Virus record (IMG/VR): IMGVR_UViG_3300027807_000003
Coordinates: 70,333-134,332 of that record
Direction: 5' to 3' (one strand)
Origin: a virus
Lineage: Duplodnaviria > Caudoviricetes
DNA length: 64,000 nt
Position numbers and translations under genes: made by a program. Position 1 is the stretch's first letter, and the number at the start of each line of letters is the position of its first letter. Positions 9,379 to 51,813 of the stretch are shown here, in pieces. The notes beneath the pieces are model-generated. The model was not told the DNA's origin, did no database searches, and was given only the letters and a program-made list of their open reading frames with translations.

Positions 9379-11259
9379 TTAAGTTTTCACCACTATTGGT
9401 TTTATTCTCTTTGTTTTAGCCGTTTTTGGTTTAACAGCCTTTCTGGTTTTTTTGATAGTGCGTTTTTTGCTGTCTACACCCTCTAGCGATTCAGGTGGCA
9501 CAGGCTTGTCAGTGCGGGTAATATGAGAAAACCATTCATAGTGCTTAATATCTTTTTCATCACAAAAAGCACCGTAATAATCATTTTGTGCAGCATTTGT
9601 ATCAGCGTTTTGTTGAATTTGATAAAGCTTACAACGTTCGTTTAAGCAGTAAAACTCAAGAGCTTTTGGGTGTCTACCTAGTTCCCCACAACAGTGACAT
9701 ATCTGGCTGGAATAAGGAGATGGGGACAAAGTGAAGCTATCTGGTCCCCTAAATCGCCGACATTTCTCCTCCACCAGCGATCGGTATCGTCCCCATCTAG
9801 CATCTAAAATTTCGCGATTTAAATCAGATTGGTGTTCCGCACCATTTGGTTCATATCCTTTACCATCTGCACTTGGTATCGGATCCGGACGCTTCACCAT
9901 CTCGTCTGTCGGCATTTCCTCAATAGTTATTTTCCCAAAGCGGCGTACCAGAATAGTTGAGGATTTATGCAAAAATGCATTGGCGGGTCGCCGGATCTTG
10001 GTTTCATTGATTTTACCTTTTCGGTGGAGCGTTTTTTTGTAATTATTACTATCTCCCCGCAAATGATCCACGGACAACCCTTGCTCTTGGCGCTCCTTGA
10101 TTAATTTTTTCCTATCGCTGCGTTGTCTGGCTAGTTTACGCTCGATTCTTGCTAATTTTCGAGCTTGTTTGGCAGCAAACCGAGGATTTTTGACATGGCT
10201 ACCAGGTTCGTCACTGGACATGAGGTTGATTAGCCCCGTATGGACAGCTATTCCCCGCTTCCGAGGTTTAATTTTGGCTTTTTTACGTACCTGTATTGAT
10301 AATTCTGCCTTTAAATCACTGATTTGCTGCTTAAGCAACTCTTTTTCCACAAACTCCGGAGTCTTTTTCAACTGAGCTTCCAGTTTACGAATTTTAACTT
10401 CCAAAGGATGGGCACTGACAATACACACATACCACCCGGTGGGTTCTTCCTTAATAGTTACCGCCCTAATGGCTCCGGGGGTAGATCGCACCTCTTCGGG
10501 AATTCGCTCATGATTCTTATTTACAAATCTTAGTGATAAAGGATGCTGCTTACCTTCACCATCTACCCATTTACCAGGGAGCCTAAGTCTATCGCCATCA
10601 AACCAGATCTGCTCTGGACTAATGCAATGGAATGATGGCAACATCTCATTCTTTTTAAAATTAGGCATACAAGCTTTTTCTATCTTGGGGTTCAAATAAG
10701 CTTCCCAAGCAGCAACTAAGCGATTAAACACAGTCCCCTTCATCCAAGACGACGGTACAGTGAGTTCCCCCAGTAGTTTTAGTTTCGGCTGACCCTTTTC
10801 TACACGATCCTTATTTATTAGCCGCCGGCGGGAGTCTTCTTCTTCACGCATCAAATCACATCTTGTCTTAGTCAGGTACCCTGTAAGGGTCATAAAAAGG
10901 TCTGGATTTTTGGGTCTAGCCTTATTTTCAGGGTAATGGGACAACAGAGTTGGTTCCTCTGGTAGCATTTTTGGGGGTATGGGGGTGTAGACTCCATTTT
11001 TAATAATTGCAATTTCACAAGTTGGCGATGCCCATGCCCTCTTTTTATTTAAGCGGAGCCTACAGCGGAGAATCCCGTTCATGTTGATTTTTTCTTTTGC
11101 TGCGTTTTTTAACATGAACTCGTAATACCTAAACTGCTGATACTCAATCAGCAACTCTAGCGCCTTGTTCCAAATCCACCTTAAATTAGCTGCATTTCTG
11201 CCAGTAAAGAAATTTTTCTCCCAATCATTCATGTAGATTTTGCACTCAGTCGTTATCAT
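9379..11259 (-). CDS. TnpB/Cas12-family (compact type V-U-like) RNA-guided effector, probably nuclease-dead
   Basis: N-terminal LRWIWNKAL helix, PNFKK and GWYVCI segments; RuvC-I GIAVHTG (Asp replaced by His), RuvC-II ITIEEM, YEPNG..QSDLNREILDARWG, Zn finger SQICHCCG...FYCLNERC, RuvC-III NADTNAAQN; adjacent CRISPR array; no tnpA. Confidence 0.88.
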   Translation of the reverse strand: MITTECKIYMNDWEKNFFTGRNAANLRWIWNKALELLIEYQQFRYYEFMLKNAAKEKINMNGILRCRLRLNKKRAWASPTCEIAIIKNGVYTPIPPKMLPEEPTLLSHYPENKARPKNPDLFMTLTGYLTKTRCDLMREEEDSRRRLINKDRVEKGQPKLKLLGELTVPSSWMKGTVFNRLVAAWEAYLNPKIEKACMPNFKKNEMLPSFHCISPEQIWFDGDRLRLPGKWVDGEGKQHPLSLRFVNKNHERIPEEVRSTPGAIRAVTIKEEPTGWYVCIVSAHPLEVKIRKLEAQLKKTPEFVEKELLKQQISDLKAELSIQVRKKAKIKPRKRGIAVHTGLINLMSSDEPGSHVKNPRFAAKQARKLARIERKLARQRSDRKKLIKERQEQGLSVDHLRGDSNNYKKTLHRKGKINETKIRRPANAFLHKSSTILVRRFGKITIEEMPTDEMVKRPDPIPSADGKGYEPNGAEHQSDLNREILDARWGRYRSLVEEKCRRFRGPDSFTLSPSPYSSQICHCCGELGRHPKALEFYCLNERCKLYQIQQNADTNAAQNDYYGAFCDEKDIKHYEWFSHITRTDKPVPPESLEGVDSKKRTIKKTRKAVKPKTAKTKRIKPIVVKT

Positions 11260-11312
11260 CCCCGTTACCCCTAAACCGTGACATGAACTAATTTAATCCA
11301 AAAAAGAACATC

Positions 11313-11341
11313 TTGCCTTTTTTGAAATTATGGATCATAAT
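11313..11341 (+). promoter_or_regulatory. Sigma70-type promoter for putative tracrRNA/pre-crRNA
   Basis: TTGCCT-N17-CATAAT, divergent from the effector gene. Confidence 0.55.
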
Positions 11342-11347
11342 GTGTTT

Positions 11348-11727
11348 ACTTTGAATTTTTCAAAGTCTACGCGGCTTGGTCTGCGGAAGTTAAAGCTTGT
11401 TCTGAACTTAAGTTCAGTATTTGGGGGACAAAATACCAGTGGGAGTACCCCCAAGCGACCAGTAGGTGAAAGCCCTGGATTGAGACAAGTCCCTCAATGA
11501 GCGGGCCGGAATCCTGCTCCGATCCCGGGCAACCGGAATACCTACACTCTTAGAGCGATCTGCTACCTGAACCTTGACAATTGCGCGCGTGCCACCCTTG
11601 CGATCTTTGCTCTGCAACGATTTTGGGTATCTGCTGTATCTCACGCGGGAATAAACACAGCTTGTTTACCTGAACTTCGGAAACCCTTTCTGGAATTCTT
11701 TCTACGACTGGGTTCTGGAGGGGAGGG
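11348..11727 (+). ncRNA. Putative tracrRNA/scaffold RNA and array leader
   Basis: No credible ORF, GC-richer than its flanks; contains anti-repeat CTTGCGATC (11597-11605) and GCGA-tctg-CTACCTG (11555-11569), both complementary to the repeat 3' end. Boundaries are approximate. Confidence 0.55.
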
Positions 11728-12650
11728 GTGGCGATAGGCTTTAGATGTCTGGGTAGTCGCAAGCTTGTAATGCCCAAACTTTTTGGTGTGCATCCCTAGC
11801 GGTGGCGATAGGCTTTAGATGTCTGGGTAGTCGCAAGTTTACAATAGGCAGATTCTTGATCAGCTAACGCTTAACGTGGCGATAGGCTTTAGATGTCTGG
11901 GTAGTCGCAAGCTCAACCAGCTAATTCCTAGCTATACTGGACAATCAGTGGCGATAGAACTTAGATGTCTGGGTAGTCGCAAGTGCCTATGATCCTCTGT
12001 TCCTTAGAGTGTTGGTGTGCTCTGTGGCGATAAGCCCTAGATATCTGGGTAGTTGCAAGAATACGAGTTATTGCCGCATCTTTATCTAGGTCAACTGTAG
12101 CGATAGGCTCTAGATGTCTGGATAGTCGCAAGAATCACGGTTGGCACGAGAGCGTTTTTCGCTCAATTTCGTGGCGATAGGCCCTAGATGTCTGGGTAGT
12201 CGCAAGCTGATCCATTCTTTCGTCACTTTCCACCCCCAATCCAGGTGGCGATAGGCCCTAGATGTCTGGGTAGTCGCAAGGTTGACATAAGTTACTGAAT
12301 TTAAGTCTCGATTTAATTAGTGGCGATAGGCTCTAGATGTCTGGATAGTCGCAAGTGGAGTTATTGGATTTGGATAAACACCACGAAAAAGTGGTGATAG
12401 GCTTTAGATGTCTGGGTAGTCGCAAGTAAAATTTGAGTGTTTACTTAAATCAGGGGGTTAAAAGTGGCGATCGCACCTAGTAGATGTTAGACAGTCGCAA
12501 GACACAGAATACAGGTTTAAACTTGTTAATGACAGCATTAAAGTCGCGATCGCACTTAAATATTTAGGCAGTTGCAATTCTGACTAATTATTAAAAAAGG
12601 TTAAGATCCGGGAGTGGCGATCGCAAGTGATAGTTCTGAATGATCGCAAG
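11728..12650 (+). CRISPR. CRISPR array, 36-nt repeat GTGGCGATAGGCYYTAGATGTCTGGRTAGTCGCAAG, 13 repeats (last 3 degenerate), 12 spacers of 35-41 nt
   Basis: Repeats start at 11728, 11802, 11876, 11948, 12024, 12097, 12171, 12245, 12320 and 12391; degenerate ones at 12464, 12543 and 12614. Spacers are unique. GTGGC...AAG ends resemble cyanobacterial type V repeats. Confidence 0.96.
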
Positions 12651-13255
12651 TTATCTTCCTGGTTGCCACAATTTTGGGGATGCCTGGCGAAAATCGCAAG
12701 TATCCAGGTCAGGACAAGACAGGGAATAGGGATTGCAAGGGTAAGGAATTTTAGGTCTGAGCGATCGCAGGTCCGAGTATGTCGCAAGTTGAATCGTGAG
12801 CCATCGACTGTTAAAGGTCTAGCGCAGGTTTAGACAATTCCCCAAAAAGTTGTTTTCTCCTGAAAACCTTACCCCACAAAGGTTTTGGTTGCACAAGTAT
12901 TTGTACTTTGATTACGAAACACATAAATTGGGCGTAGGTCGCAAGTCAGCAGGAATTTTATCACTTAGGTTCTCACAGGCAGTTTTAGGATTGGTGGCGA
13001 TCGCTAAGTATTACAGTTTTCTAGTCAAGTAGGAAAGAAAGATCGCAAGCTGTGAACAATTACTTTAAATAGGTTTAGATCGCCAAGGATGAATAAAAAG
13101 ATGAGATCGCAAGTCATGGGATTGGCAAGTCGCAAGACAAATTTCTCTCCCTATTCAGATCGCAAGCTGATCCAAAATGTCAGATAGACTATTTGCTTAA
13201 TGTAGTGCGATCGCAAGAACGAAGGGAACATTCCGAGTTTTGATAGATCGCAAGC
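12651..13255 (+). repeat. Field of minimal repeat 3'-ends ((G)ATCGCAAG / GTCGCAAG) with irregular spacing
   Basis: Motifs end at about 12700, 12739, 12788, 12945, 13049, 13113, 13136, 13166, 13217 and 13255, all on the + strand. Confidence 0.75.
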
Positions 13256-16106: not shown

Positions 16107-18041
16107 CTAAGCTGTTTCTTGCATTAAGTGGCCATATCGTTGGAAAACTTTTGGCGATCGCGACATTTTTACTCTGAAAAGACGACCGAATCCAGACTTA
16201 CAAATATGCTCACCCCAGCGATCGACCTGAGCCTGATCACGGAAGAGTCGCCCAATATTAGACTGGGTAAGAAATTCTTCAAACCCGTGGATTTCAATTT
16301 GGTCCATCACATTTTCATGATGAATTGAATCAAATTCCACAAAAAAGTCTACTTCGGGTTCCGCTTCTTTTTGGCGGAGTTTGCGAAGATAAGCTAAGTA
16401 GTCCTTGTAATATTCTTTCGCCCTGACGTAATTGCCGGAAATCTCACTCATGCAATTAACGCGCGTCGGTTGGTAATTGCTCTTACCGTTGATATTCGTG
16501 AGTTTACATTCCTCCTCACGTACCTTAATATACCATCCGAGAAAATTCCTGTCAACATTATCACCATTCATCCACGGGTCAGCGGACGAACTGCGATGAA
16601 CACCCTTGATCGGGTTAAGGTGGCGTTTCAAAAGTGAACCGCAGTATTCGTCTAGCTCATCATCGGTTTTGTTAATCCATTCATCCGTATGATCAGCAAC
16701 ATTTGGTCTATGTAATATTGGCTTGGGGATATTAGTTCGATTGTTCGGCTTTGTCGAACGAGGCGCGGAACCTTCTTTTTTAAATCCGTTGGGAAATGAG
16801 TGATCTGTGTGCTGCTTAATTTCTTCACATGGCGAAGATGTTGTTTCTGGTTCTTCTTCAGTTGTGCTGCTAACGGTAGGTTCTTCTGAAATTAACGTCA
16901 GGTTAATAGCTGGTAGATCTTGGATTACCTCAAATCCAGGGATAAGGGGTAAATCTGGAAATTCCTCTTTGGCCATTTCTTCTTTCTCCTCCGATTTTGG
17001 AACAAAATCCTCCTCACTTGTCTTTGGGTGGGGGGTGGGATTTGTATTTGTAGTAGTTAATGAAGTAATAATTGAATTCCTTATATATAGGGTGTCTTCA
17101 CTTCCTTCATTCACTTGGGGTGAACAGTCTTGGCTACATACGTCTGTAGATGGGCCCAAAAAAACAGCCCCTGAATCCTGTAAACTAAGATCCTTTATCT
17201 CTGTCTTGTCAGGTACGAGAGATAAGTGAGCTTTATCGGATCTAGAAAGCCCTCTCGATTTTTTTGATGATTGTTTGGATTTAAACTTCCCAGTAAGTAT
17301 TGCAATTTTGCTGTGGTTCCTAAAATACCACGTCGTTCCCTCTAAGTGGTCGTGATAGCTGCAAAAGTATTTTTCTTCGCCATCCTCACTTAAAAATGGG
17401 TTTGGTGATGCAATAAACTGGGTGTAAGATTTATGCTTAACACCAATTTTGTCAAAAGCTGTTCTGAACTGAAATTCGCTAAAACCTAGTTCCTCGGTCC
17501 AACTGTCACCTAACCTGTAATGTCGGTTGTCGTTGGGGGATAAAAATTTGTAGAAACCTTCGCCTTTGGTTATGTCAAACCAGTATTCCAATCTGGTAAA
17601 GACAATAGCGGCGTTAATATCTTTTACAAGGTCAAGAATTGGGCGACTGTAGCCAATAAAGTCCATACGTTTTATACTGAGAAAGTTAGAAAAATTAGAA
17701 GAGTGCGATCTATCTAGATGTGTTTGGTGTGAACTTGAGTTTATATGCGACTGTTCACACGATTGGGCATCTATTTTTGTTGTTGGTGTATTTATGGTGG
17801 GCGACGAAAACATACTATCCCTGTCTCCGCCCCCATTCTTTTTTGCACCTCTGGGGCTAATACCTTTTTCCCTTACGGTAAGGAGATCTTGAGGCTTGTA
17901 ATTTATAAAAATCTCAGAATTCTTGTTGACAGTATCGCTAGAAAATGATATATTCAGCATTGATTCTTTGTTTAACATTTCTTGCTCCTTCTTCTGCTGA
18001 GTTAGAGGTGTTGTAGATAAAGATCCTTCTTTAGCTAGCAT
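16107..18041 (-). CDS. Phage replication initiator-like protein
   Basis: Directly upstream of dnaB; wHTH-like core AAIVFTRLEYWF...GDSWTEELGFSEFQFRTA followed by a low-complexity linker. Confidence 0.65.
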   Translation of the reverse strand: MLAKEGSLSTTPLTQQKKEQEMLNKESMLNISFSSDTVNKNSEIFINYKPQDLLTVREKGISPRGAKKNGGGDRDSMFSSPTINTPTTKIDAQSCEQSHINSSSHQTHLDRSHSSNFSNFLSIKRMDFIGYSRPILDLVKDINAAIVFTRLEYWFDITKGEGFYKFLSPNDNRHYRLGDSWTEELGFSEFQFRTAFDKIGVKHKSYTQFIASPNPFLSEDGEEKYFCSYHDHLEGTTWYFRNHSKIAILTGKFKSKQSSKKSRGLSRSDKAHLSLVPDKTEIKDLSLQDSGAVFLGPSTDVCSQDCSPQVNEGSEDTLYIRNSIITSLTTTNTNPTPHPKTSEEDFVPKSEEKEEMAKEEFPDLPLIPGFEVIQDLPAINLTLISEEPTVSSTTEEEPETTSSPCEEIKQHTDHSFPNGFKKEGSAPRSTKPNNRTNIPKPILHRPNVADHTDEWINKTDDELDEYCGSLLKRHLNPIKGVHRSSSADPWMNGDNVDRNFLGWYIKVREEECKLTNINGKSNYQPTRVNCMSEISGNYVRAKEYYKDYLAYLRKLRQKEAEPEVDFFVEFDSIHHENVMDQIEIHGFEEFLTQSNIGRLFRDQAQVDRWGEHICKSGFGRLFRVKMSRSPKVFQRYGHLMQETA

Positions 18042-22655: not shown

Positions 22656-23114
22656 ATGTCATCCCCTGTATTTTCCTTTGAGTATGATGACACCCAACTA
22701 CAGCAAGCACTAAAAAGATTGTCTGTTGCTTGTAATGACCTTACACCTACAATGACAGAAATTGGTGAGGCAGCATTGCTTTCTATTGATCTGCGATTTC
22801 AGCAAGAAGTAGACCCAGATGGATTAGCGTGGAAACCATTATCTACCTATACGCTAGCTCTCAAAAAATCTGAAGGCAGAATCCTCAAAATTCTCCAGTG
22901 TACAGGAATGATGCGAAGCAGCTTCCGCTATCGTGTTACCTCCAATAGTTGTACCGTAGGGACTAATGATCCAAAGGCAGTTAAACACCAGTTAGGGATT
23001 GGGGTACCTCAGCGGAAAATACTGGGTTTCAACGAAGAAGATAAGCAGGAGTTCTTAGCAATAATTGAAGACAACATAGCATCAGCAATTAATAATACTA
23101 AATTAAACGGATAA
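22656..23114 (+). CDS. Phage virion morphogenesis protein (Mu gpG / P2 gpS-like)
   Basis: DLTPTMTEIGE...RFQQEVDPDGLAWKPLS...ILQCTG...VGTN...HQLG...PQRKILG; ATG at 22656. Confidence 0.88.
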   Translation: MSSPVFSFEYDDTQLQQALKRLSVACNDLTPTMTEIGEAALLSIDLRFQQEVDPDGLAWKPLSTYTLALKKSEGRILKILQCTGMMRSSFRYRVTSNSCTVGTNDPKAVKHQLGIGVPQRKILGFNEEDKQEFLAIIEDNIASAINNTKLNG

Positions 23115-23134
23115 ACGGAGGGTAATAAAATGGC

Positions 23135-23347
23135 ATGGAAAAATACTTTGTAGAATTTGCAGCTTACGAATGGACAAAATTAGTAGCAAACGGTAGTTAC
23201 GAAGTTTATTGTTGTAATGACGGATGGTCTTTCTCAGCAATTACTAAACTTAAAAAAGAGATTATGGAAAAAGTAGAAGCTAAAGGGCATACACCTACTT
23301 ATATTCAAATAATTAATTTATATCCAATAACATCTGAAACTTCATAA
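23135..23347 (+). CDS. Hypothetical protein
   Basis: 70-aa ORF with a GGAGGG RBS upstream. Confidence 0.55.
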   Translation: MEKYFVEFAAYEWTKLVANGSYEVYCCNDGWSFSAITKLKKEIMEKVEAKGHTPTYIQIINLYPITSETS

Positions 23348-23355
23348 ATTAAATC

Positions 23356-23754
23356 ATGAAAACCTCCCCCTACTGCAAAAAACGGCATGGTACCCCCAAT
23401 GGTGCCTGCAACTCATTCCCGGTTCCCGACTGTAAGATTTGCGGACAGAAAAACCTCGACAACCATAACTGGTACTGCCCTAATTGCTTCCGCTGCCTTG
23501 AGTGCGAAAAAGTAGTTGAAAAGTTTGTCAAAGATGGTGAATTACCGGAAATTCCTTCAACTATTTTGGTTGATCCGCATAGGGGAAAAGATAGAATTAG
23601 AATTCCTAAATTCACTCACTCTAAAGAGGTTTGCAGGGTTTATCGTTTTAGTCCTGTAAATAATGCTTATGTTAGCGATCGCCCCACAGGAATAGTATTG
23701 AAAGGTGAACAAATTGGTCAATTACTCAATGGCAATTTAAATTTGTTAAGATAA
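23356..23754 (+). CDS. Cys-rich (zinc-finger) hypothetical protein
   Basis: CKIC, CPNC and CLEC motifs. Confidence 0.6.
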   Translation: MKTSPYCKKRHGTPNGACNSFPVPDCKICGQKNLDNHNWYCPNCFRCLECEKVVEKFVKDGELPEIPSTILVDPHRGKDRIRIPKFTHSKEVCRVYRFSPVNNAYVSDRPTGIVLKGEQIGQLLNGNLNLLR

Positions 23755-23764
23755 AATTCAAGTG

Positions 23765-23821
23765 TGCATATTCTTTTTTTGACCCCCAAGTAAGTTTGAG
23801 TATTTGGGGGTTCTGTTTTGG
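23765..23821 (+). repeat. About 57-bp direct repeat copy 1, with terminator-like hairpin
   Basis: TGCATATTC(T)nGACCCCCAAGTAAGTTTGAGTATTTGGGGGTT...; near-identical copy at 24489. Confidence 0.85.
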
Positions 23822-23912
23822 CTTTTTTATTGACTTTATACGTATACTACTATATTGTTTAAATAATCAATTATTTCCAACCAACCAATTAATCAATCAA
23901 CCGAGGTGCGAC

Positions 23913-24449
23913 ATGGCTAATTTTCGGGCTTTTTTCCCTAGAACAGATAACTTGGTAAGAGTTGCAGGCTACAATTTATTGCACAACAAAATAGTCCAAT
24001 TACCCGACGGCATGCACAAAACTATTGTGGATACAAATCATCTGACCAGCGTTGATTTTAGATTTAGTATTGAAATCATTATCGATCCACACAAACTTGA
24101 GAAAACAGGAAAACCTGAATTAGTTTCGCTATTTAACTCCACGGATACCTACAATTTAGGTATCATCCATGATGGAGAACTCATGGATGATGAAGATATC
24201 ATAGCGTTATTTAATCTGGTCAAATCCAGGCTAAAGATTGTACACGCTATTAAAACGTCCCACGCTTCTTATAGCCTCCAGTGTGAGGCTGAAAATGATT
24301 GGGAACTGTTAGAATTTTGCCTTAAGTATCAAAATTTGATATCTGACAGAGCAAAACACGAATCTGCTATAAATTCACTCAAGTCACTCAAGCCTCTAAA
24401 GCCAAAAAAAGATGAGCAAGAAGATGAGGAATATTATGTATGTAGATAA
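23913..24449 (+). CDS. Hypothetical protein
   Basis: GAGGTG RBS precedes the ATG at 23913 within the listed ORF. Confidence 0.6.
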   Translation: MANFRAFFPRTDNLVRVAGYNLLHNKIVQLPDGMHKTIVDTNHLTSVDFRFSIEIIIDPHKLEKTGKPELVSLFNSTDTYNLGIIHDGELMDDEDIIALFNLVKSRLKIVHAIKTSHASYSLQCEAENDWELLEFCLKYQNLISDRAKHESAINSLKSLKPLKPKKDEQEDEEYYVCR

Positions 24450-24488
24450 AATAGTCTAAAATAATCTTGTTAACCCTGAATATAGGCT

Positions 24489-24546
24489 TGCATATTCTTT
24501 TTTTTGACCCCCAAGTAAGTTTGAGTATTTGGGGGTTTTGTTTTGG
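24489..24546 (+). repeat. About 57-bp direct repeat copy 2
   Basis: Near-identical to 23765-23821. Confidence 0.85.
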
Positions 24547-24610
24547 GTGTTAATGGCGATCGCTACTTTATTCAAGTAAAATAATTATGTAATCATTGTA
24601 TAAAAATAAT

Positions 24611-24877
24611 ATGAACACAGTCACTCAAGAACAAATTACCGCTTTATTGGATGAAGCAGAAACGCAAGAACATACTTTTTGGGGAAAAGAATTAGTGGTT
24701 AGTTACAAACTAAAATCGGGTTTTACTATTTTGGGTAGAGGGGCATGCGTAGACCCAGCTAATTTTGTTTTAGAAGTTGGCAGAGAATGGGCACGTAAAG
24801 ACGCTGAACGCCAGTTATGGCAACTTGAAGGATACATACTTCAAAATGTTTTAGCTGGTACAATTACAAAACAATAG
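24611..24877 (+). CDS. Phage protein, N4 Gp49 / Sf6 gene 66 family
   Basis: LKSGFTILGRGACVDPANF..EVG...A...LWQLEGY signature. Confidence 0.85.
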   Translation: MNTVTQEQITALLDEAETQEHTFWGKELVVSYKLKSGFTILGRGACVDPANFVLEVGREWARKDAERQLWQLEGYILQNVLAGTITKQ

Positions 24878-24910
24878 GTGAAAGCCTATTTCTTAGCGAT
24901 CGCCATTAAC

Positions 24911-26686
24911 CCGCCTAAAATTACTCCGGAGTATTCCGGAGTAAAAATTGACCTTTTCTAATAATCAATTTTTTCAGTCTTTTTAAAACGGGAAGCCATG
25001 TATAGTAATGACTCTGAATTTTGCGGAATATTCCTGAAAATTCAAACACAAGTCAATTCTTTAAAGGAGATAATATTAGTAATTAGTTCACATTATGGGG
25101 TAATTCCCATTTTTGCAGGATTTCCTGCAAAAATCAATGTGTCGTAAATGATTTAGCTTTTACCAAAAAGTGGTATCACAGTTAAACCCTTGCAGGGCAG
25201 GTATTCTAGCCAAAAAATTTAAGAAGTGGTAAGTAAAACCTTCAAGTGAAGGCGATCGCCCTCACTTGAAGTCCGGTTATGATCCAAAGCATAATAATGG
25301 GTACTGCCTATTTGTTATGCTTTTTGGTACTCTATATAACCCAGAAATAGTCTGAGTATACTTAAAGATCTTAGATGCACCAACATCTAAGGCTTTTTCT
25401 TTCTGATATATCCATCATATCTTATCCGCCTTCACTTGTATTTGTCAGAAAATTGATTTTGTTACATATTCAAAACCGTTCCGGGAATTCCCGGAACGGG
25501 GAAGTACCCTATATCAAACAATCTTGAAAATTACCTGAAACCTTATCTTCGTAAGGATTGAAGGTTCATATTGAATGATCCTGAGGTCGTAAAGTTGTCA
25601 TAGATGAACTTTGTCAAGCTATTGCTAAATATTATGCCTTTGATGCTCGATCAATGCTTTCAGCTTTTAATTATGGGGATGTTTTTAGGATTTTTGGTCA
25701 CATATCAAACACGGGATTTCCCGTAATTGAGCAATATCAAGGGTTTCAGCTACTCAATACGGAGAAATATTGATTTAGCCCCAAAGGGTATCAGTTGCAG
25801 TGATACCCTTTTTGAAACTGTTACAAGTTCAATGATTTTTCCGGGTTCAAACCGGAAAAATAAAAACCCAAAAAAGTAAACACTCTCAAACATATACCAG
25901 AAGCAAGTTTCAAGTAATTTAAATATAAAAAAGTAAACACCTCCTATGATATCGTAACAAATTCAAAACAGTAGTAAGTTTAACTCACTGGGGAGCATGC
26001 CATCTTTGCAATGGAGTGTTTATACTCATGACTCAAAACGCTCTACTTATAGGCTTTCAACTACCTCATTGCCCAGGCACTCAATTTATGTATCTTCAAA
26101 AGTGACATGGTCCCACTCGTTGCCCTGTAAAGATTTAAGGGACGTGAGAGGTAATATACCTTTCAGCGATTTAATCACTATTTGATTTATTTCGGTCAAC
26201 CTGAAAATATTGCCAAATGGTAGTTTTGGGAAATAAAGTACATTATTTCGGTCAACCTTAAAGGGTACAAACGATCTTCGTACCTTTTATTGATTCCGTT
26301 ACAAGCTTAAAAAGGGTATAGCCATAACCTATACCCTTTTACTTTAGTGGTTTAGTACGGAGGGTTTGGCGATCGCCAAACCCATCCGAACGAATTTAAT
26401 TATTTTTCTACTTTAATCCTTGCAAATGCTGTCTTATAAGGATTTTAGTAATGTGGGCGATCGTAAAAGATGAAAGTTCATTCCGGGAATTTATAGGGTC
26501 AAATAGCCCAGAAGCTTTGCCCTATAAGGATTTCAAATCCGGGAAAATTAAAACCGATGATACAATTTTGATTAACCTCAAAGGGTAAGAAGATAATTCT
26601 TACCCTTTATTGATCCTGTTACAGGTTTTAGAAAATTATCTGCTATCCTTAATTGAAAGTGTTACAGAATCAAAGGTAATTAGTTT
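24911..26686. other. Palindrome-rich non-coding region (candidate origin / partition / recombination locus)
   Basis: No credible ORF over 1.8 kb; more than 10 inverted repeats and several short direct repeats. Confidence 0.7.
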
Positions 26687-41584: not shown

Positions 41585-42233
41585 TCAACCCACGGATTTA
41601 GATGTACTAGGTTTAATCAGTACCACTGGATTTAGAGATGAATTCTCTGGGACTTCCCTATCAAATAGCTGGTCTGCTACCTATGGTTCAGGGCAAAGTG
41701 GAACTGTAGGCAATGGTCAATTTGTCTTGGCTCTAGGGACTAATCCTGGTGTGCAGTCAACTATTCTCAGGACTTCCACCCCCTACACACCCCCGTTTGT
41801 CGCTGGTTTTTGTATTTCAACTGATAGTTATCTATCTAATCAACAAATTCAGCTAGGAGTAATAAGTACTACCAGTACTGATGGTGCGGCAATTATTATT
41901 AATACTGCTTCTAATAACGATTCAACTGCCCAATTCCAGTCTACTAGAGATGGTATTGGGTCGTCCTTTGCACCCATTAATATCCCTCAATTTCTTTACC
42001 CATCTAGTTACCTACTATTCAAAATAGATGTTCTCAATGCTGAAACTAAGCTACGGGTATTCAGTATTGGCACAACTAACAGTGGTACGTTATCTGTCCC
42101 TAACTCCCTATATACCTGTGTCCCCAATATCTCCCAAAGCTACCAAGTCTACATTAAAGCCATTAACTTAGCTAACGCTCCGGCATTTGCTAATAATCTC
42201 AGGGTTAAAGCCGCCTACTTGTTCCAGTACTAA
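41574..42233 (+). CDS. Beta-sandwich (lectin-like) putative virion protein
   Basis: FRDEFSGTSLSNSW start typical of ConA/LamG-like domains; S/T/N-rich. Confidence 0.5.
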   Translation: MPTNQPTDLDVLGLISTTGFRDEFSGTSLSNSWSATYGSGQSGTVGNGQFVLALGTNPGVQSTILRTSTPYTPPFVAGFCISTDSYLSNQQIQLGVISTTSTDGAAIIINTASNNDSTAQFQSTRDGIGSSFAPINIPQFLYPSSYLLFKIDVLNAETKLRVFSIGTTNSGTLSVPNSLYTCVPNISQSYQVYIKAINLANAPAFANNLRVKAAYLFQY

Positions 42234-42235
42234 TT

Positions 42236-45200
42236 ATGCCCCCCCCTAACTCTTCCAGCTTCGGCAACTCTACCCCTAATTCCTCCGTCTCGACCAACCA
42301 AATCGAGACGGTAATTAGGGCTAGGGATGATACTCAAGCAGGTATTAGCTCTGCTTCTGCCTCATTCAAGCAACTCCAAGCTCAAGCAGGGGATACCGCT
42401 GAGGCGATTGACACCGCTGGTTCATCCATGCAGGTGTTGTCGAACCAGATAGCGATCGCTAAAGCTCAGGCTACTGCTTTTGCTAATACTTTGTCTAGTA
42501 CCGTCATCTCTTCGGCTAAATTACTCGGATCGGCCTTAAATACAACTGCGTTAACTGTAACTAGCCTATTTTCCACCTTATCTAGTGGTACAGTTGCTTC
42601 CGTTGGTGGTATAACCCTTGCTTTTCAAACAATGAACGCCGTGGCTCAACAGCCAATAGTTCAAAACTTGTTTCAACAAATGTATGAGGATGCAATTGAG
42701 TCCACCAAAGAGGTGCAGAAGCTTAGTGATGTTGTATCTGCCTTTAGTAAATTAGCCGTTGATAGTGCTCAGGGTGGGTTTATCGCTGGCTTTTTGGGTA
42801 TAGAGCCAAAGAAGATTCAATCTACTGAAGATATAGCCAGAGAAAGGGTTACAAATCTTGTCGATAATATTAAGAAGGTGATCACCAAGAAAATTGGTGA
42901 GAATGTTTCATCTGATAGCGATCGTAATTTATTATTAAAATTTTTACCACAAGCTTTAATAAATGGCTCTTTAGGGCAATTCTTATCAGATAAAATCAAG
43001 GACCAATTTAATAATTATCTTGTCGGGCAAATCAAAAGTAGAATCCAAGGCGCTCTTTCTGCTGGGTTCAGTAATTTTTCTGTAGGATCGTTTTTTAATT
43101 TAGCTCAATTAACTCTGCAAATTCGTAATAGTACGAATTTATTCCGAGACTTTGAGGATATTCTAATTGATCGTTTAACCCAAAGTTATACTGGAATTTT
43201 AAATAAAGCAAGTGAGCTAGGGAACCAGTTTTCAGGTAGTTTTGCCCGTATTTTATTGGTCTTAGCTGTTAGGTTTAACTCTCAAATCAGGTCTGTTTTA
43301 GATGTAATTATTAGAGATATCGGTGGGGCGATCTTAAGAATAATATCTTTTGTTGAGTTAGCTAATCAAAGGTTAATTCTTGCTATTGTCTCTAGTTTTA
43401 ATAAAATTGGATTACTGGGTAATATTGTATCCAAAGTATTTATTGATTTAGGAAATAGGTTTAGTGGATTAGGACAAACAATTGTCACTAAAATAACTAG
43501 TTTTTATACAAGTATTATTCAAAGTTTTAATGGTATAGGACAAAGGATAAATAGCGTTCGCCAAGTTATTGGTAACTCAATTACGTCTTTATCCACCACA
43601 TTATTATCTATTTTAACTCAGTCCTTTGGAAATATAGGAAGGCAGTTAGGTAACTTAGCACAAACGATTATTACTCCTATTGGATTATTCTATGCAACTA
43701 TTATTCAATCTCTTGGTGGTATAGGACAAAGATTGAATGGTATTCGGCAGTTTATTAGTAATTCAATAGCATCTTTTTATACTAATTTGTTTTCTGTGTT
43801 AACTCGAGCTTTTGGAAACATAGGAAGGCAGTTAAGTAATGTATCCCAGATAGTTGCTATCTCTATTAAATCATTTTATACCACTATTATTCAAGCTTTT
43901 AGTAGTATAGGTCAAAGGTTAAGTGGCATTACCCAGTCGGTGTTTAGAGCGTTTTCGTCTTTTTACTCTACACTTACCCAAGTTTTTGGAAATTTTGGTA
44001 GTTCACTGGGGGCGATCGCTCAGTCAGTATTTGGCTCAGTAACACAAATATATTCTGTTGTATCTCAAGCATTTTTAGGATTTGGGCAAAAACTAATTCA
44101 AGCATCAAATCCGGTAACTAATTCCGTTAGAACTGTTTTTAACAGTATTGGTAGTGCATTTGTTACCGCCGGAAGTAAATTAAGTACTAGTTTAAACTCG
44201 GTCTTCCAATTCTTTGGTGATCAAATAGGTGGAGCGATTTCTGAGTTACTTACCCCTAAAATCTTTAAAGGTAAATCAGTTGGCGAGCAAATTTTAAATA
44301 ACTTACTATCTCCTACTGTAAATAGCACTGGGAAAATCTTATCTACCGATCTGGTTAAAAATATTGGTCAAAAGTTAACTAGTTTATTCGTTGACGAAAA
44401 AGCATTAAATTCCGGTGCCTTAAATGGATTTGAAAAAGTACAATTAAATTTAATTCAAAAAATAATTACTCTTTTTACAGATATTTCTTTACGGGTAGTT
44501 ACTCAATCGGCTCTAGTTAGGGGTGTAATAGTTTCCTCTTTAAGAGGGATATTCGCTCAAATTAATCTCCCTGATTTTGGGAAAGAACTATTAGAACATT
44601 TATTGGCTGATAATGCGATCGCGGGTTGGGCACTAACCCGTAGTAAGGAAATTGGTAAAAGCCTGTCTGAATTTCTAGAGAAACCTACTAGAAATAGCTT
44701 TGGTCTATTAACAAAGCAATTAAATAATTCTTTAATCGATGGTCTAGAAGTAATAGGGAATAAATTACCCGCCAGTATTAAAACTAACGTCACAGAGAAA
44801 ATTGTAGCAGGGCTAAGGGAAACTAACAGACAAGTAGGAGCTTCACTAGTTGGATCTGGTGTAGGTGCTTTGGTTGCTGGACTTCCTGGGAGTAATCCTG
44901 GATTTGGGATGCTAGCTAATAGAATAGCTACCCAACGGATGCTTGGAAAACAGTTTAGTGAAATTCCTGAAGTAGGTGCGGGTGCTGAGGTACTGCTTGG
45001 GCAATTTACTAGTGGGAAGCTAGGAATTAATAATGGGATAGGTCGCTCAATTGTGCAATCAGTTATCAGTTCAATTAGACAAGCTTTTTCAGGTGCTAAT
45101 CTACTAGATGTTTCCAAGAATTTATTAACTAATATTGCTAGTGGGACTGCTTTCAATATAGTTGCCCAATTTTCTAAAAACCCAGGTTTAGCAATTCAAG

Positions 45201-48200
45201 CATCTACAAAAGTTCGTGAATTTGTCCAAAGGATCTTTCAACCTCTTCAGGAAAGTGATAAACAGCTACCAATGGTTCAGCAACGACTCCTAGCCTTTTT
45301 TAGGGGGATAGTTGCAGTTATCCAGCAGGCATTTAAGTTAATTGGTAAAATTTCAGGATTTAGAGATTTTGTTCTTAAATTAGACAAAGATCTTAACGGC
45401 GCTTTAAGTGAAATTGCTACTACAGCAATTGATACTTTTTACGAGAGAATCACGGCTAGATTAAAAGCTAATGCCTCTCGTGGTGTGGGAAATCTATTTC
45501 AACCACTCACTAGTGGGTTAATCAGAAACTTAACAGTCGCTTTTGATTATGTTGATAAGAAGGTAATTCAGTTATTTTCTACCCTCCGGGCACTCCCAGG
45601 GAAGGTGGAAGGTGTAGTTAATGCACTAACTGGTCCTACTCTATTTCTAGCTGGTTTAGATATTCCCGCCCAAGTATTCGGGGAAATCCAAGGGGGATTA
45701 GGAAACTTTGCGGCAGGTGTCAACAATGTTGCTCAACAGATATTTTTCTTCCAGTCAGCCTTCCTCTCCATTCAGCAGCTTGTAGCTAATGGTCCCTTTG
45801 ATCTCTTAATTAAGCAAAATGTTGAGTTACAAAAACAACTACTTGAAACCCAAGCTAGCTTAGTCGCCACAAACAAAATATTCCAGAACGGTGTTCAGAT
45901 AACCGATCCGACGGCAGCGATCGTTAAACTCAACGCCCCCGTACAGGCAGCGATTAGTGATTTACGTAAAGGGGCATTAGAAATTAGTGGCTTAACTAGC
46001 CGGGAACTGGTAGGAATTTTTGAAACAGTTTCCCGTCAGTCATCAGCAATTGGAATCAACCTGAGACAGGCAGCCCGACTATCCCTTGATTTTGCAGCAG
46101 CTATGGGTACATCCCATATCCCTTTAGAACAAGCTCAAGTAGAAATCAACGATATTTTACAAGGAACAATTAGTGGTACAAACGCCCTAGCTAAAAACCT
46201 GACTATTTCCGGTGCTCAAAGCCGTGAGCTAATTACCCAAGGTAAACTCTATGAAATCTTGGAGCAAAAACTAAAAGCCTTCCGAGCGGGTAATGCTCTG
46301 CAATCGCAGACCCTAGATGGTGTAACTAGTAATATCCGAGAAGTTATCCAGTTAACTACCCAATCCGCTGGTAAACCACTTTTGGATTTAATAGTTGACC
46401 AGTTAAATCGCCTGTACCAGTTTTTAAGTGCCAATCAATCTAATCTTCAAGAATACCTCAGTGGTATAGTTGGGAGCTTAATTAGTACAGGTAACTCCTT
46501 AGTTAGGATTGTCGATGCCGTTACCGACAGTATGGGTTCATTCCTTGCCGCTATTCCTAGCTACCTATTCCGTGAGTTAGCCGCCGGTGCAGATTTATTC
46601 GCTAATTCTATAACCCAGATTGTTACATTTCTCAAGCCATTTTTTGAACTTTTAACCCAGCTATCTCAGCTTATTATCCTTAGCTTCCTTGGACCTGTAT
46701 CCCAAGCGGCAATTACATTAATCACGGTTAATGTAGCTATTAAGGTCCTCGCTACTTCTTTTAGGCTACTTTTGACTATGATGCCCATACTGGGGCACTT
46801 CTTACTTTATGACATTGCTAGAACAGCAGCATTAGGTAATCAATTCGCATTTTTGTTGGGTGCCACTGGTAAACTTAATATTGCCCTTGGATTACTCGCG
46901 GGTCAAAATCTTCGCCAAATACCTTTACTATTTAATGCCGTAGCTAGTTCTATCCCTATTTTTGGTAATCTAATTGCTGGCTTTGTTCCTCAACTATCAG
47001 GATTAGCGATCGCTTTAATTAAATGGAATAAAACTGCACCAGTTGGAGCAATTGTTCAAGAACTAGCCGGAAGTTTTGGTGTTTTAACTGGTTCTATAGC
47101 TACTGTCGCTAGTGGTAGAGGAATGGGAGTATTGGGTGGGGAGTTAGAAAAATTAAGCGGGAAATTAATTAAAGCAAGTACAGGTACTAATCTATTGTCT
47201 CAAGCAGAAGATAAAATTCGGGAAATATCTAAAACTGCTGGTGCGGCTTTTGCTGCTCAAGCCGTATCACTGGGGTTAGTAATAGGAGCAGTAGTAATTG
47301 CTGGTATTGCTTTTAACGAATTCATGCAAAGAAACAAGGATGCAGCAGAACCACTGCGTAAGGTATCTGATCAATTAGAAGAATCCGCTAAAAAAATTCA
47401 CGACTCATGGACACAAGTAAAGAAAGACGCAGGTAGTGGTTTATCAGAAATTAGTAAGGCACCCCCCACCGACTGGATTGATACCTATATTCTAAAAACC
47501 CGTGAACTAGAAAATGGAACTTTTAGGATTAAAAATTGGGGTGATGCATTTCTCGTGATAGCGATCGGTATAGGTAAAGCTATTCAGGATTTTATAATTG
47601 CTCCTATTGTATTAGGATCAAAAACTTTAGTAAATGTTTTTGGTTATATTGCACAAGTAATAAAAGATATAGTAACTTTTAACTGGAAAAAACTTGCAGA
47701 CGATACCGCAGAGTATCAAAGACGAATAGCAAAAGATACCCAAGAATTTGGTCAGACGGTATCTCAAGGATTTAATGACACTTCCACTAAGACAGAGAAA
47801 TATATTAACGATATTACCAAGCTTTTGAATTCTGGTAAATTGCAGCAGTCGATTAAAGACCAATCTGATAGTATTGATCAATTAATTAAAAATGCTTCAA
47901 AAACAGGGGAAATCTATAATAAACAATTACAACCAGTCAAAGATGCTTTTAAAAGCTTCCAAGAAGGTAAAAGTAATGTGGATGATGTTATTAAGTCTCT
48001 ACAAGAACTACCAGATGCTATTCCCCAAGATCAGCAGCAAAATTTAATAGATTTCTTTAGGACTAATTTTCATGATGGTGTAGAAAAATCAAAAGATGCC
48101 ATTGACCAATTTAATAGTAAATTGGATTTGACTAATGTCGAAGCTAGTAACGTGGCTGTTGAAGCTTATCGCAAACAGCTTGAAGATACTGAATCTCAAA

Positions 48201-50737: not shown

Positions 50738-50749
50738 CTAATTTGTCTG

Positions 50750-51280
50750 TCAATTAAATTCTCTTCCTCTTTCAAGGGAATTTATACATTCTTGTTTGTC
50801 TTCTTGCTTGCAGGCGATCGCCATAATCTTCTTTAATTCCTCTGCCCAAATTGCTTTTAACACCCTATTTTCATCTAGGTCGATACTTTTAACGCCTCGG
50901 CTCAAATTTATATCAATTGCTATGTAACGTTTTCGGATGAATGGTAGTTCTTGGTCACGGCAGTAATCGGGGTGATCATCTAAATTACATCGCCACCAAT
51001 CAAGTGCCATAATATGTCCTTGCATAATATCTTCTAGTTTGGAATCACCAGATTTATCTACTACAGCTTTAGTTTCCTGTAAAACTTGTGAATACTGCAT
51101 GATATTCATCCCTACATTGATTTTGGAATAAAGCTCGTTAATAGCTGCGATCGCGTCCTTCTCTTCTTGGGTATCAGGGAGGGATGTATCCCCATGCCCA
51201 ATATTGGTGATTAAGTAGGCAAACAGACCAAGGGCGATCGCGGTAGTCGATATAAGGACGGTTTTGATTGGGAATGCCAT
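50750..51280 (-). CDS. Membrane-anchored/secreted moron protein
   Basis: Opposite strand inside the tail operon; N-terminal hydrophobic helix. Confidence 0.65.
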   Translation of the reverse strand: MAFPIKTVLISTTAIALGLFAYLITNIGHGDTSLPDTQEEKDAIAAINELYSKINVGMNIMQYSQVLQETKAVVDKSGDSKLEDIMQGHIMALDWWRCNLDDHPDYCRDQELPFIRKRYIAIDINLSRGVKSIDLDENRVLKAIWAEELKKIMAIACKQEDKQECINSLERGREFN

Positions 51281-51402
51281 AGCACTGAAAGTAAATTAGC
51301 TAAATTGTATCAAATCCCCGGTGTTTACTTAAATCTAGAGTTACGTAAATCATTAATTCACTCCATATTTGCAATCTAGACTGAAGCAAAATCTAGATTT
51401 AT

Positions 51403-51813
51403 TTGCGTATGACTATCCCCATGACGGGTAACGGCCAATATTTCCAACTCGTCACTTCATGGAATACTTTCGGGATTAAGCCTGACGGTGTGGCATTTAG
51501 TGATGGGGAAAATGTGCCTTTTAAGATCAACACTAGTGGAGTGCTAGTAACGATCGCTGTAATCAAAAAAGAAGTAAACCTGACCATCGAGGGTGTTTCC
51601 GACGCTGATGTGGCTCAGTTTTACAACCTCAAAATCAATACTGCTCAAGGATTGGCGGCGGGTTCTTTTGTGCCTCCGGATCTAGTTTTCCCTGGGTACA
51701 CTATCCCCCAAGCAGCCCTGACTGATATTGAACCCTCTGGGCCTTTCACTGCGTATAACTTACAGCGTTGGGACAAGATGGTAGCCAAGTACATGAGCTT
51801 ACAATTTATCTAA
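51403..51813 (+). CDS. Putative distal-tail / tail-tube-fold protein
   Basis: About 130 aa, first + strand gene after the tape measure; assignment is positional. Confidence 0.45.
   Translation: MRMTIPMTGNGQYFQLVTSWNTFGIKPDGVAFSDGENVPFKINTSGVLVTIAVIKKEVNLTIEGVSDADVAQFYNLKINTAQGLAAGSFVPPDLVFPGYTIPQAALTDIEPSGPFTAYNLQRWDKMVAKYMSLQFI

Follow-up and report, generated by a model that had tools for sequence, protein, structure and literature searches.

Does a phage-borne CRISPR effector still cut DNA when a histidine stands in place of the first aspartate of its RuvC nuclease site, or does it bind its targets without cutting them? The question is raised by positions 9379–12650 of the window, the 64,000-nt stretch analysed here, which is the right-hand 64 kb (positions 70,333–134,332) of the Caudoviricetes record IMGVR_UViG_3300027807_000003. 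An earlier note, made from the sequence alone, had described this segment as a phage-encoded, stand-alone type V-like system with a probably nuclease-dead TnpB/Cas12 effector that diverges from a 12-spacer array. Here we report that the histidine is real and lies on a gene under purifying selection, that by sequence the effector belongs to the wider lineage of the phage nuclease Cas12p and of C2c8, and that five of its spacers match other DNA of the same samples. Our preferred reading, to which we give a probability of about one half on the strength of sequence comparison and analogy, is that host thioredoxin docks on the effector, which recognises its targets next to a 5′ motif ending in T and binds them without cutting.

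A deep-branching relative of Cas12p and C2c8

The effector gene (9379–11259, minus strand) is the 626-aa open reading frame (ORF) of TnpB fold that had been described. The ORF, its profile matches and an AlphaFold2 (AF2) model outline WED, REC, PI, RuvC and zinc-finger parts, followed by a disordered basic C-terminal tail. The protein matched the zinc ribbon Cas12f1-like_TNB in Pfam (E = 2.3e-6) and, in NCBIfam, both guided_TnpB and V_cas_c2c8 (NF038192; E = 7e-50), the latter being its best NCBIfam model. Its NF038192 score of 170.5 bits nevertheless lies below the curated cut-off of 350, whereas true members of C2c8 score 437–451 bits, among them the protein of cyanophage vB_AphaS-CL131 (451). 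An exhaustive HMMER search of 1.8 billion representatives yielded nine proteins under E = 1e-30, and the nearest relative (P0002), encoded on the chromosome of Anabaena sp. 90 and labelled a ‘TnpB family’ protein, has an identity of 37–39%, depending on the tool. A word-based protein search retrieved the effector itself only, scans for close relatives gave two distant loci in genome contigs and mainly generic TnpB in metagenome contigs, and 389 Nostocaceae genomes contained six matches at E ≤ 1e-25, none of them a close relative.

Among solved structures the best match in both sequence and fold is Cas12p. In the preprint by Wang et al. (bioRxiv 10.1101/2025.01.20.633832; a Nature Microbiology 2026 version is cited in PMC13728456), Cas12p, or ‘Cas12 hacker’ (type V-P), is a phage-associated protein of 500–700 aa that works with a trans-activating CRISPR RNA (tracrRNA) and a CRISPR RNA (crRNA), has a GTN protospacer-adjacent motif (PAM) and the catalytic residues D378, E478 and D582, and is an active nuclease with Mg or Mn; its authors counted 12 members. 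A phmmer comparison of the Cas12p structure 9jfs with the effector covered residues 164–572 (E = 3e-32), and a profile built from the 20 best sequences (alignment A1) matched Cas12p in PDB entries 9jfs and 9jg3 at E = 1e-180. The AF2 model of the effector (predicted local distance difference test, pLDDT, 88.8; predicted template modelling score, pTM, 0.81) placed the Cas12p–TrxA structures 9jg3 and 9jfs at Foldseek ranks 1–2 (E = 2.6e-26; template modelling score, TM, 0.60–0.70), the next match being TnpB (6.6e-12).

In a tree of 56 rows obtained by a quick search, the effector pairs with P0002 in the basal grade of a 25-row clade (Shimodaira–Hasegawa-like approximate likelihood ratio test, 100) and falls outside the 19-row Cas12p-like clade that the larger clade includes. 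The bona fide C2c8 proteins, that of CL131 included, lie on neighbouring branches outside the 25 rows. The terminal branch of the effector is long (1.17, against a median of 0.58). Because of this basal position, the effector is by sequence a deep-branching relative of Cas12p and C2c8 that fits the narrow definition of neither.

The comparison with Cas12p extends to the locus. Like Cas12p, the system is phage-borne, with an effector of 500–700 aa that adjoins an array and lacks adaptation genes. The two proteins, however, are only about 25% identical, a helical insert of Cas12p (residues 52–101) is missing from the effector, the array here diverges from the gene whereas that of Cas12p follows it, and the repeat ends in GCAAG rather than GAAAC. 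With C2c8, also known as V-U2, the locus shares its minimal content and the link to cyanobacteria and their phages. A V-U2 system was reported in CL131 in 2018, together with a proposed regulatory role (PMC6293099). The CL131 repeat likewise ends in ..TAGTTGGCAAG, but the CL131 protein keeps the RuvC-I Asp and its array lies downstream on the gene strand. The earlier expectation that the family might be catalogued yet functionally uncharacterised is thus right in its first half, given the 2018 report, and outdated in its second, the family having since been characterised as thioredoxin-dependent Cas12p.

A private histidine at the RuvC-I position

The residue of the effector that corresponds to D378 of Cas12p is His340, encoded by CAT at 10240–10242 on the minus strand. 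It occupies the RuvC-I Asp column, the place that the earlier note had given it, in every alignment made, whether by MAFFT, by hmmalign with 159 relatives or by phmmer to 9jfs. In the 159 relatives this column contains Asp in 144 of 148, Ser in two, Lys in two and His in none, with 11 sequences gapped there; Asp was also found in all ten ORFs from phage and cyanobacterial loci and in all four full-length Nostocaceae ORFs. The rest of the site is intact, again as described. Glu447 of RuvC-II (9919–9921, minus strand) and Asp553 of RuvC-III (9601–9603, minus strand), the latter within a complete NADTNAA motif, align with E478 and D582 of Cas12p and, like the zinc-finger residues C521, C524, C538 and C543 (9631–9699, minus strand), form invariant columns in the MAFFT alignment. 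The triad is therefore H340–E447–D553 in place of D378–E478–D582.

Could the histidine be an assembly or sequencing error? The assembly is metagenomic, and contig depths in two of the supporting runs, X2 and X3, are as low as 2.5–2.8. Against this, the CAT codon is identical in contigs of three runs from three studies (X1, X2 and X3; no listed piece of a fourth run, X4, spans it), and X3, which has a different year and label, represents a variant strain with 4 other differences in 260 nt. The effector gene has 19 variant sites across X3 and X4, 14 synonymous and 5 not, which gives a ratio of nonsynonymous to synonymous substitution rates (dN/dS) of about 0.1; depths there are 2–4, so that single differences may be errors, yet errors would not prefer synonymous sites. 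The recurrence of the codon in three runs, together with this ratio, argues against both a sequencing error, which we regard as extremely improbable, and a decaying gene. His340 is a real residue, found in one phage lineage only, and purifying selection acts on the gene that encodes it. The earlier note had reckoned that Asp in all close homologues would point to a private mutation or an error; Asp does prevail, although the nearest of the relatives that have it is distant, and near-identical strain variants keep His.

A related possibility is that the effector was inactivated recently and is on its way to loss, the array being a relic. A single-base change (GAT to CAT) confined to one lineage, the long terminal branch and the decayed end of the array would all suit this explanation, but the low dN/dS applies across variant strains that retain His, the frame is intact and its fold confidently predicted. 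Moreover, the content of the array varies by sample, and its leader-proximal spacers match DNA of the same samples almost perfectly. We consider decay improbable.

In RNase H-fold enzymes the β1 Asp bridges both metal ions. A precedent for binding without cutting is provided by Cas12m (type V-M, formerly V-U1), whose H-D-D and N-D-D variants leave DNA uncut and silence plasmids and phages by PAM-dependent binding (PMC11013384). Cas12m is compact like the effector, and some of its members combine a RuvC-I His with the other two acidic residues; because these bind without cutting, a nuclease-dead binder is plausible here as well. The RuvC-I residue and this precedent are the two grounds on which loss of cleavage may be proposed. 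Cas12m nevertheless represents a different lineage, as the profile match (E = 1e-12) is confined to the C-terminal RuvC/Zn region and Cas12m stands at Foldseek rank 9 with a TM of 0.44. In addition, Cas12m needs neither tracrRNA nor thioredoxin, and its ‘Roof’ insertion is not seen in the effector.

TldR-type regulators are likewise TnpB-derived proteins whose catalytic site is altered and which are presumed only to bind. Inactivated TnpB/Cas12 derivatives have also been catalogued, for example V-U24 with a non-canonical RuvC-I (Altae-Tran et al. 2023, PMC10691335, whose supplementary tables may list variants of the present kind). The effector shares with both groups the TnpB scaffold, the altered site and the presumed role; however, the catalogued changes are clade-wide and conserved, often come with partner proteins and have no variable array, whereas the change here is private to one phage lineage with a variable array. 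No published description of a RuvC-I His variant of the Cas12p/C2c8 lineage was found in the Cas12p, C2c8/V-U2 and cyanophage CRISPR literature, supplements and subscription papers lying outside that search.

A thioredoxin pocket without the TB.b loop

According to the preprint, Cas12p is inactive without host thioredoxin, which docks to a hydrophobic pocket of TB.a around C127 and positions the basic TB.b, and mutation of the basic TB.b residues nearly abolishes cleavage (bioRxiv 10.1101/2025.01.20.633832). The counterpart of this pocket spans residues 45–83 of the effector (11011–11127, minus strand). When A1 was compared with the residues named in the preprint, counterparts were present as Y45, Y46, F48, I58, M60, I63, L64, C66, L68, C81 and I83.

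A complex of effector residues 1–200 with the thioredoxin of Nostoc PCC 7120 reached a score of 0.79 in modelling, where the three controls did not exceed 0.28; on a rough calibration, the mark of 0.79 is attained by 58 of 80 solved complexes and by 2 of 110 mismatched pairs. The runs shared at least 98% of contacts with a partner pLDDT of at least 91, and the modelled interface places C81 and I83 against the active-site region of thioredoxin (residues 29–37 and 71–77). From the alignment and the model, the effector would most likely dock host thioredoxin in vivo through a Cys81-centred hydrophobic pocket in the manner of Cas12p.

The column of C81, which in Cas12p is occupied by the Cys of the transient disulfide with thioredoxin, contains Cys in 17 of the 20 A1 relatives, C2c8-type proteins included. 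Thioredoxin docking may therefore be general to V-U2, beyond Cas12p.

In contrast to the pocket, the TB.b segment, which comes after the pocket in Cas12p, is a gap in the effector, in P0002–P0007 and in others of A1. Taken together, a His at the metal-bridging RuvC-I position and the missing TB.b suggest binding without cutting.

Spacer targets in co-occurring DNA

Besides contigs of the array, metagenome contigs were recovered that match a single spacer and, to its left and right, continue with tens to hundreds of bases that do not resemble the locus. Spacer S1 was matched in X4, S2 in X1 (two diverged variants) and X2, S3 in X1 and X2, S4 in X1, X2 and X4, and S8 in X3 with three mismatches at positions 5–7. 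These matches are protospacers in other DNA of the same samples, and the newest spacers of the array are among those matched. The 5′ flanks of the five protospacers read ATT, ATT, ACT, GTT and CGT, with no common motif on the other side. The T at −1 in all five, a small sample chosen post hoc, is suggestive of a PAM that ends in T. By eye, just one frame stays open through the protospacer and both its flanks, the sense frame for S2 and S4 and the antisense one for S1, and the sense frame of the S3 protospacer stops three codons beyond it, so that the targets appear to be mostly coding DNA with no strict strand rule.

One target could be assigned to a gene. In the 389 Nostocaceae genomes, a homologue of the S4 protospacer (83% identity over 41 nt) was found in genome G742, within a 983-aa ORF of DUF3854-D5_N-DUF5906 architecture that matches a PHROG DNA primase (E = 1e-31); 11 of 13 residues of the S4 peptide match this ORF. 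Members of the primase-helicase family turned up in 65 plasmid records, of which 22 are from Nostoc, and phage records contained none at E ≤ 1e-20; the best plasmid homologue is on pANA02 of Anabaena sp. 90 (71% identity). By these matches, the target of S4 is a replication gene, the primase-helicase of a family of Nostocales plasmids. The earlier suggestion that the system is directed at a host or rival element thus holds for at least one spacer. A primase-type target is a further likeness to CL131, one spacer of which matches a DNA primase (pseudo)gene of a Nostoc (PMC6293099).

Plasmid pANA02 (L198) itself contains, at 22803–25787 and 42158–51532, a complete type I-D CRISPR-Cas operon, a diversity-generating retroelement and reverse transcriptases.

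Spacers other than S4 had no match in pANA02 or in the G742 contig. No spacer has a second copy in the phage’s own genome or a match among 50,697 phage records, nothing convincing was found in 401 genomes of the phylum and 401 of the order, and exact IMG/VR scans with S1, S2 and S3 gave no hit. Two candidates were dismissed as chance, namely an intergenic match in Picosynechococcus plasmids and a translated spacer that agrees at 8 of 12 residues with position 48936 of the phage genome and disagrees in its flanks. An exact 23-nt identity also exists between positions 11784–11806 (the last bases of spacer 1 with the first 5 nt of the repeat after it) and a D1 (psbA)-like gene of two cyanobacterial genomes (L102 and L180, about 1500–1523); as it crosses the spacer–repeat border, it is probably due to chance (about 0.05 expected).

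The array and its candidate guide RNAs

The 12-spacer array described earlier is present, with spacers of 35–41 nt. Its core (11728–12426, plus strand) consists of ten 36-nt repeats and nine spacers, with the leader end at 11728 and the first three repeats identical. Spacers 10–12 lie in a decayed end (12427–12627, plus strand) with two degenerate repeats (12464–12501 and 12543–12578) and a truncated one (12614–12627). The array content differs among runs, with joints 11764>12320 in X3 and 12207>12452 in X4, which points to turnover, and the array gives the impression of being active. Most likely the array is read on the plus strand, away from the effector gene, because the identical repeats lie at the 11728 end, the far end is decayed, and a consistent protospacer flank appears solely in that orientation. 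The earlier note had suggested that spacers are acquired in trans; no host array carrying the repeat was found, and an exact IMG/VR scan with the repeat gave zero hits.

Between gene and array lies a stretch of 468 nt without a credible ORF (11260–11727, plus strand), a candidate leader or tracrRNA region that is not established as either. The earlier note had the gene diverging from a promoter, a non-coding RNA and the array; the layout of the array bears this out, but promoter-like hexamers, which are consensus matches only, number 11 against 8.4 expected in shuffles, and the tracrRNA searches gave no significant match. The fold z-score of 11260–11727 is −1.2, and no Rfam family was found in the window. 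In Cas12p, the tracrRNA is about 118 nt long, its stem-1 loop pairs with the repeat 3′ end, and the mature crRNA retains about 10 nt of the repeat. Covariance models of that tracrRNA (R1 and R2) recover it at 26 places of other phage loci. A hairpin at 11369–11386 with CUUG in its loop resembles that tracrRNA by eye only. Overall, a tracrRNA is not established at this locus. A 24-nt segment within the effector gene (10574–10597), 75% complementary to the 5′ part of the repeat, was set aside as probably due to chance.

The last eight nucleotides of the repeat (RTCGCAAG) are strongly over-represented: 2.5 copies would be expected in 64 kb, yet the window has 23, a number reached in none of 100 shuffles. 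Ten copies belong to the array, 11 to a 640-nt tail on the plus strand (12620–13254) in which they are 15–150 nt apart, and one lies elsewhere. The remaining one, CTTGCGAT at 11597–11604, is the only minus-strand copy in the window and the complement of the repeat 3′ end; it is a candidate anti-repeat, its intergenic placement having a chance of roughly 0.01–0.02, judged post hoc. The units of the tail could be fixed mini-guides or scars of repeat collapse. The tail ends at the stop of the DUF488 gene.

Other phage loci differ in their guide arrangements. Cas12p loci in IMG/VR have two different arrays side by side, with up to 28 repeats (L001/L002, 5525–8319; L004, 62–782 and 5287–5476), and in L004 a second tracrRNA copy lies beside the second array in opposite orientation. 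Cylindrospermopsis phage Cr-LKS4 (L091) carries tandem Cas12p-type tracrRNAs at 2397–2517 (E = 3e-13) and 2759–2879 (E = 5e-17), upstream of a 668-aa ‘transposase’ and with no CRISPR array within 4 kb, and may represent a guide arrangement without an array.

Phage context and locus layout

A phage origin is supported by the head maturation protease, major head protein and ribonucleotide reductase encoded in the window and by the virus record itself, which CheckV rates as 100% complete at 134,332 bp. The locus neighbours a DnaB helicase, a Dam methylase and a DUF488 protein. A 644-aa ORF between DnaB and the ribonucleotide reductase region (16107–18041, minus strand) has no Pfam or PHROG match.

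Profile, fold and locus evidence agree with the earlier description of a stand-alone type V system, related to TnpB and C2c8, that a phage carries. The absence of cas1, cas2, cas4 and tnpA, first noted for the window, extends to the whole record: separate searches of all 134,332 bp found no Cas1, Cas2, Cas4, rve integrase, Y1 TnpA or thioredoxin. The earlier note had also listed tnsBC and tniQ as lacking; for tniQ the search gave no match, with controls that were equally silent. With a TnpB-like effector that adjoins an array and has no adaptation genes, the locus has the arrangement of C2c8/V-U2. The locus does not resemble that of an IS200/IS605 TnpB, as there is no Y1 TnpA, the effector gene is present as a single copy in the record, and an array instead of an omega-RNA stands beside it.

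The altered RuvC-I position, and a tail of truncated handles that recalls the short repeat-spacer units of V-K systems (bioRxiv 10.1101/2021.02.06.429022), might also suggest that the protein guides transposition or homing in the manner of Cas12k, or that, like TldR, it regulates transcription with a fixed guide. Cas12k, however, is associated with the tnsB, tnsC and tniQ of Tn7-like CRISPR-associated transposons, and the record contains no rve, no Y1 TnpA and, with the silent control noted above, no TniQ match; nor would a fixed regulator be expected to have a variable array of many spacers whose protospacers lie in other DNA. Such roles are very improbable.

Discussion

The reading most at odds with binding without cutting is that of an active RNA-guided DNA nuclease with a non-canonical His-Glu-Asp site, perhaps of altered metal preference, which is activated by thioredoxin and destroys targeted plasmids or rival phages. 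Cas12p cuts with Mg or Mn, E447, D553, the zinc finger and the thioredoxin pocket are all kept, purifying selection is strong, and conserved catalytic-site replacements in TnpB clades have been suggested to keep activity (PMC10691335). On the other side stand the metal-bridging role of the replaced Asp, the Cas12m variants with a RuvC-I His that do not cut DNA (PMC11013384), the missing TB.b loop that Cas12p needs for cutting, and the lack of His in all 148 relatives, which indicates that His-Glu-Asp is not a conserved alternative site. Since every other part of the active site is conserved, and since TnpB clades in which RuvC-III changed from Asp to His are believed to remain active, we hold a cutting enzyme to be possible, although clearly less likely than a binder.

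Several points weigh against our preferred reading. The conservation of E447, D553 and the whole NADTNAA motif despite the long branch means that the site could still work, His is itself a possible metal ligand, and in some TnpBs a conserved Asp-to-His replacement at RuvC-III is considered compatible with activity (PMC10691335). The absence of TB.b is not peculiar to the effector, since its nearest, Asp-bearing relatives lack it too. The score of the thioredoxin complex may reflect the model’s memory of the solved Cas12p–TrxA structures, and its calibration counts hold only roughly because the complex was run on an alignment made for this analysis. The five flanks do not fit the GTN PAM of Cas12p, the covariance models of its tracrRNA gave nothing significant in the window (E = 0.1–0.9), and the duplex energy of the repeat with the intergenic stretch was equalled or beaten by 59% of shuffles. 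A target has been identified for one of the 12 spacers. Finally, X1 may be the source sample of the record, and X1, X2 and X4 may come from one campaign.

On the preferred reading of an effector that binds without cutting, a minimal type V CRISPR system would work in a phage of filamentous (Nostocales-type) cyanobacteria. The array would be transcribed on the plus strand, and its guides would retain the 3′ end of the repeat (..GTCGCAAG) as a handle. The effector would dock host thioredoxin through the Cys81-centred pocket as Cas12p does, and the complex would recognise double-stranded DNA beside a 5′ motif ending in T. Targets, at least one of which would be the primase-helicase gene of a Nostocales plasmid family, would be bound without canonical double-strand cleavage, and interference would result from a block of replication or transcription, as with Cas12m.

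A bolder proposal concerns purpose. A lytic cyanophage might use a cleavage-deficient, thioredoxin-docking effector as a programmable repressor that shuts off the replication of host plasmids with anti-phage defences, making CRISPR interference a counter-defence, with the handles of the decayed tail as further fixed guides. This idea is prompted by pANA02, the closest plasmid with a homologue of the target, which encodes a complete type I-D CRISPR-Cas system; we regard it as speculative and rather unlikely.

Earlier publications cover the family, its association with phages and the suggestion that a cyanophage V-U2 system is regulatory. What the window adds is a deep-branching cyanophage relative of the recently described Cas12p, a phage nuclease armed by host thioredoxin. 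New in this relative are a maintained natural RuvC-I His variant in the Cas12p/C2c8 lineage, the absence of TB.b while the thioredoxin pocket is retained, and co-occurring targets that are seen directly and include a plasmid primase-helicase. Thioredoxin docking may extend across V-U2, as the Cys conserved in C2c8-like relatives hints. If the effector does bind without cutting, a natural ‘dCas12’ would have arisen independently for a second time, after Cas12m and here in a phage. With a concrete system and a known target class, a plasmid replication gene, it becomes possible to ask what purpose phage-borne minimal type V systems serve.

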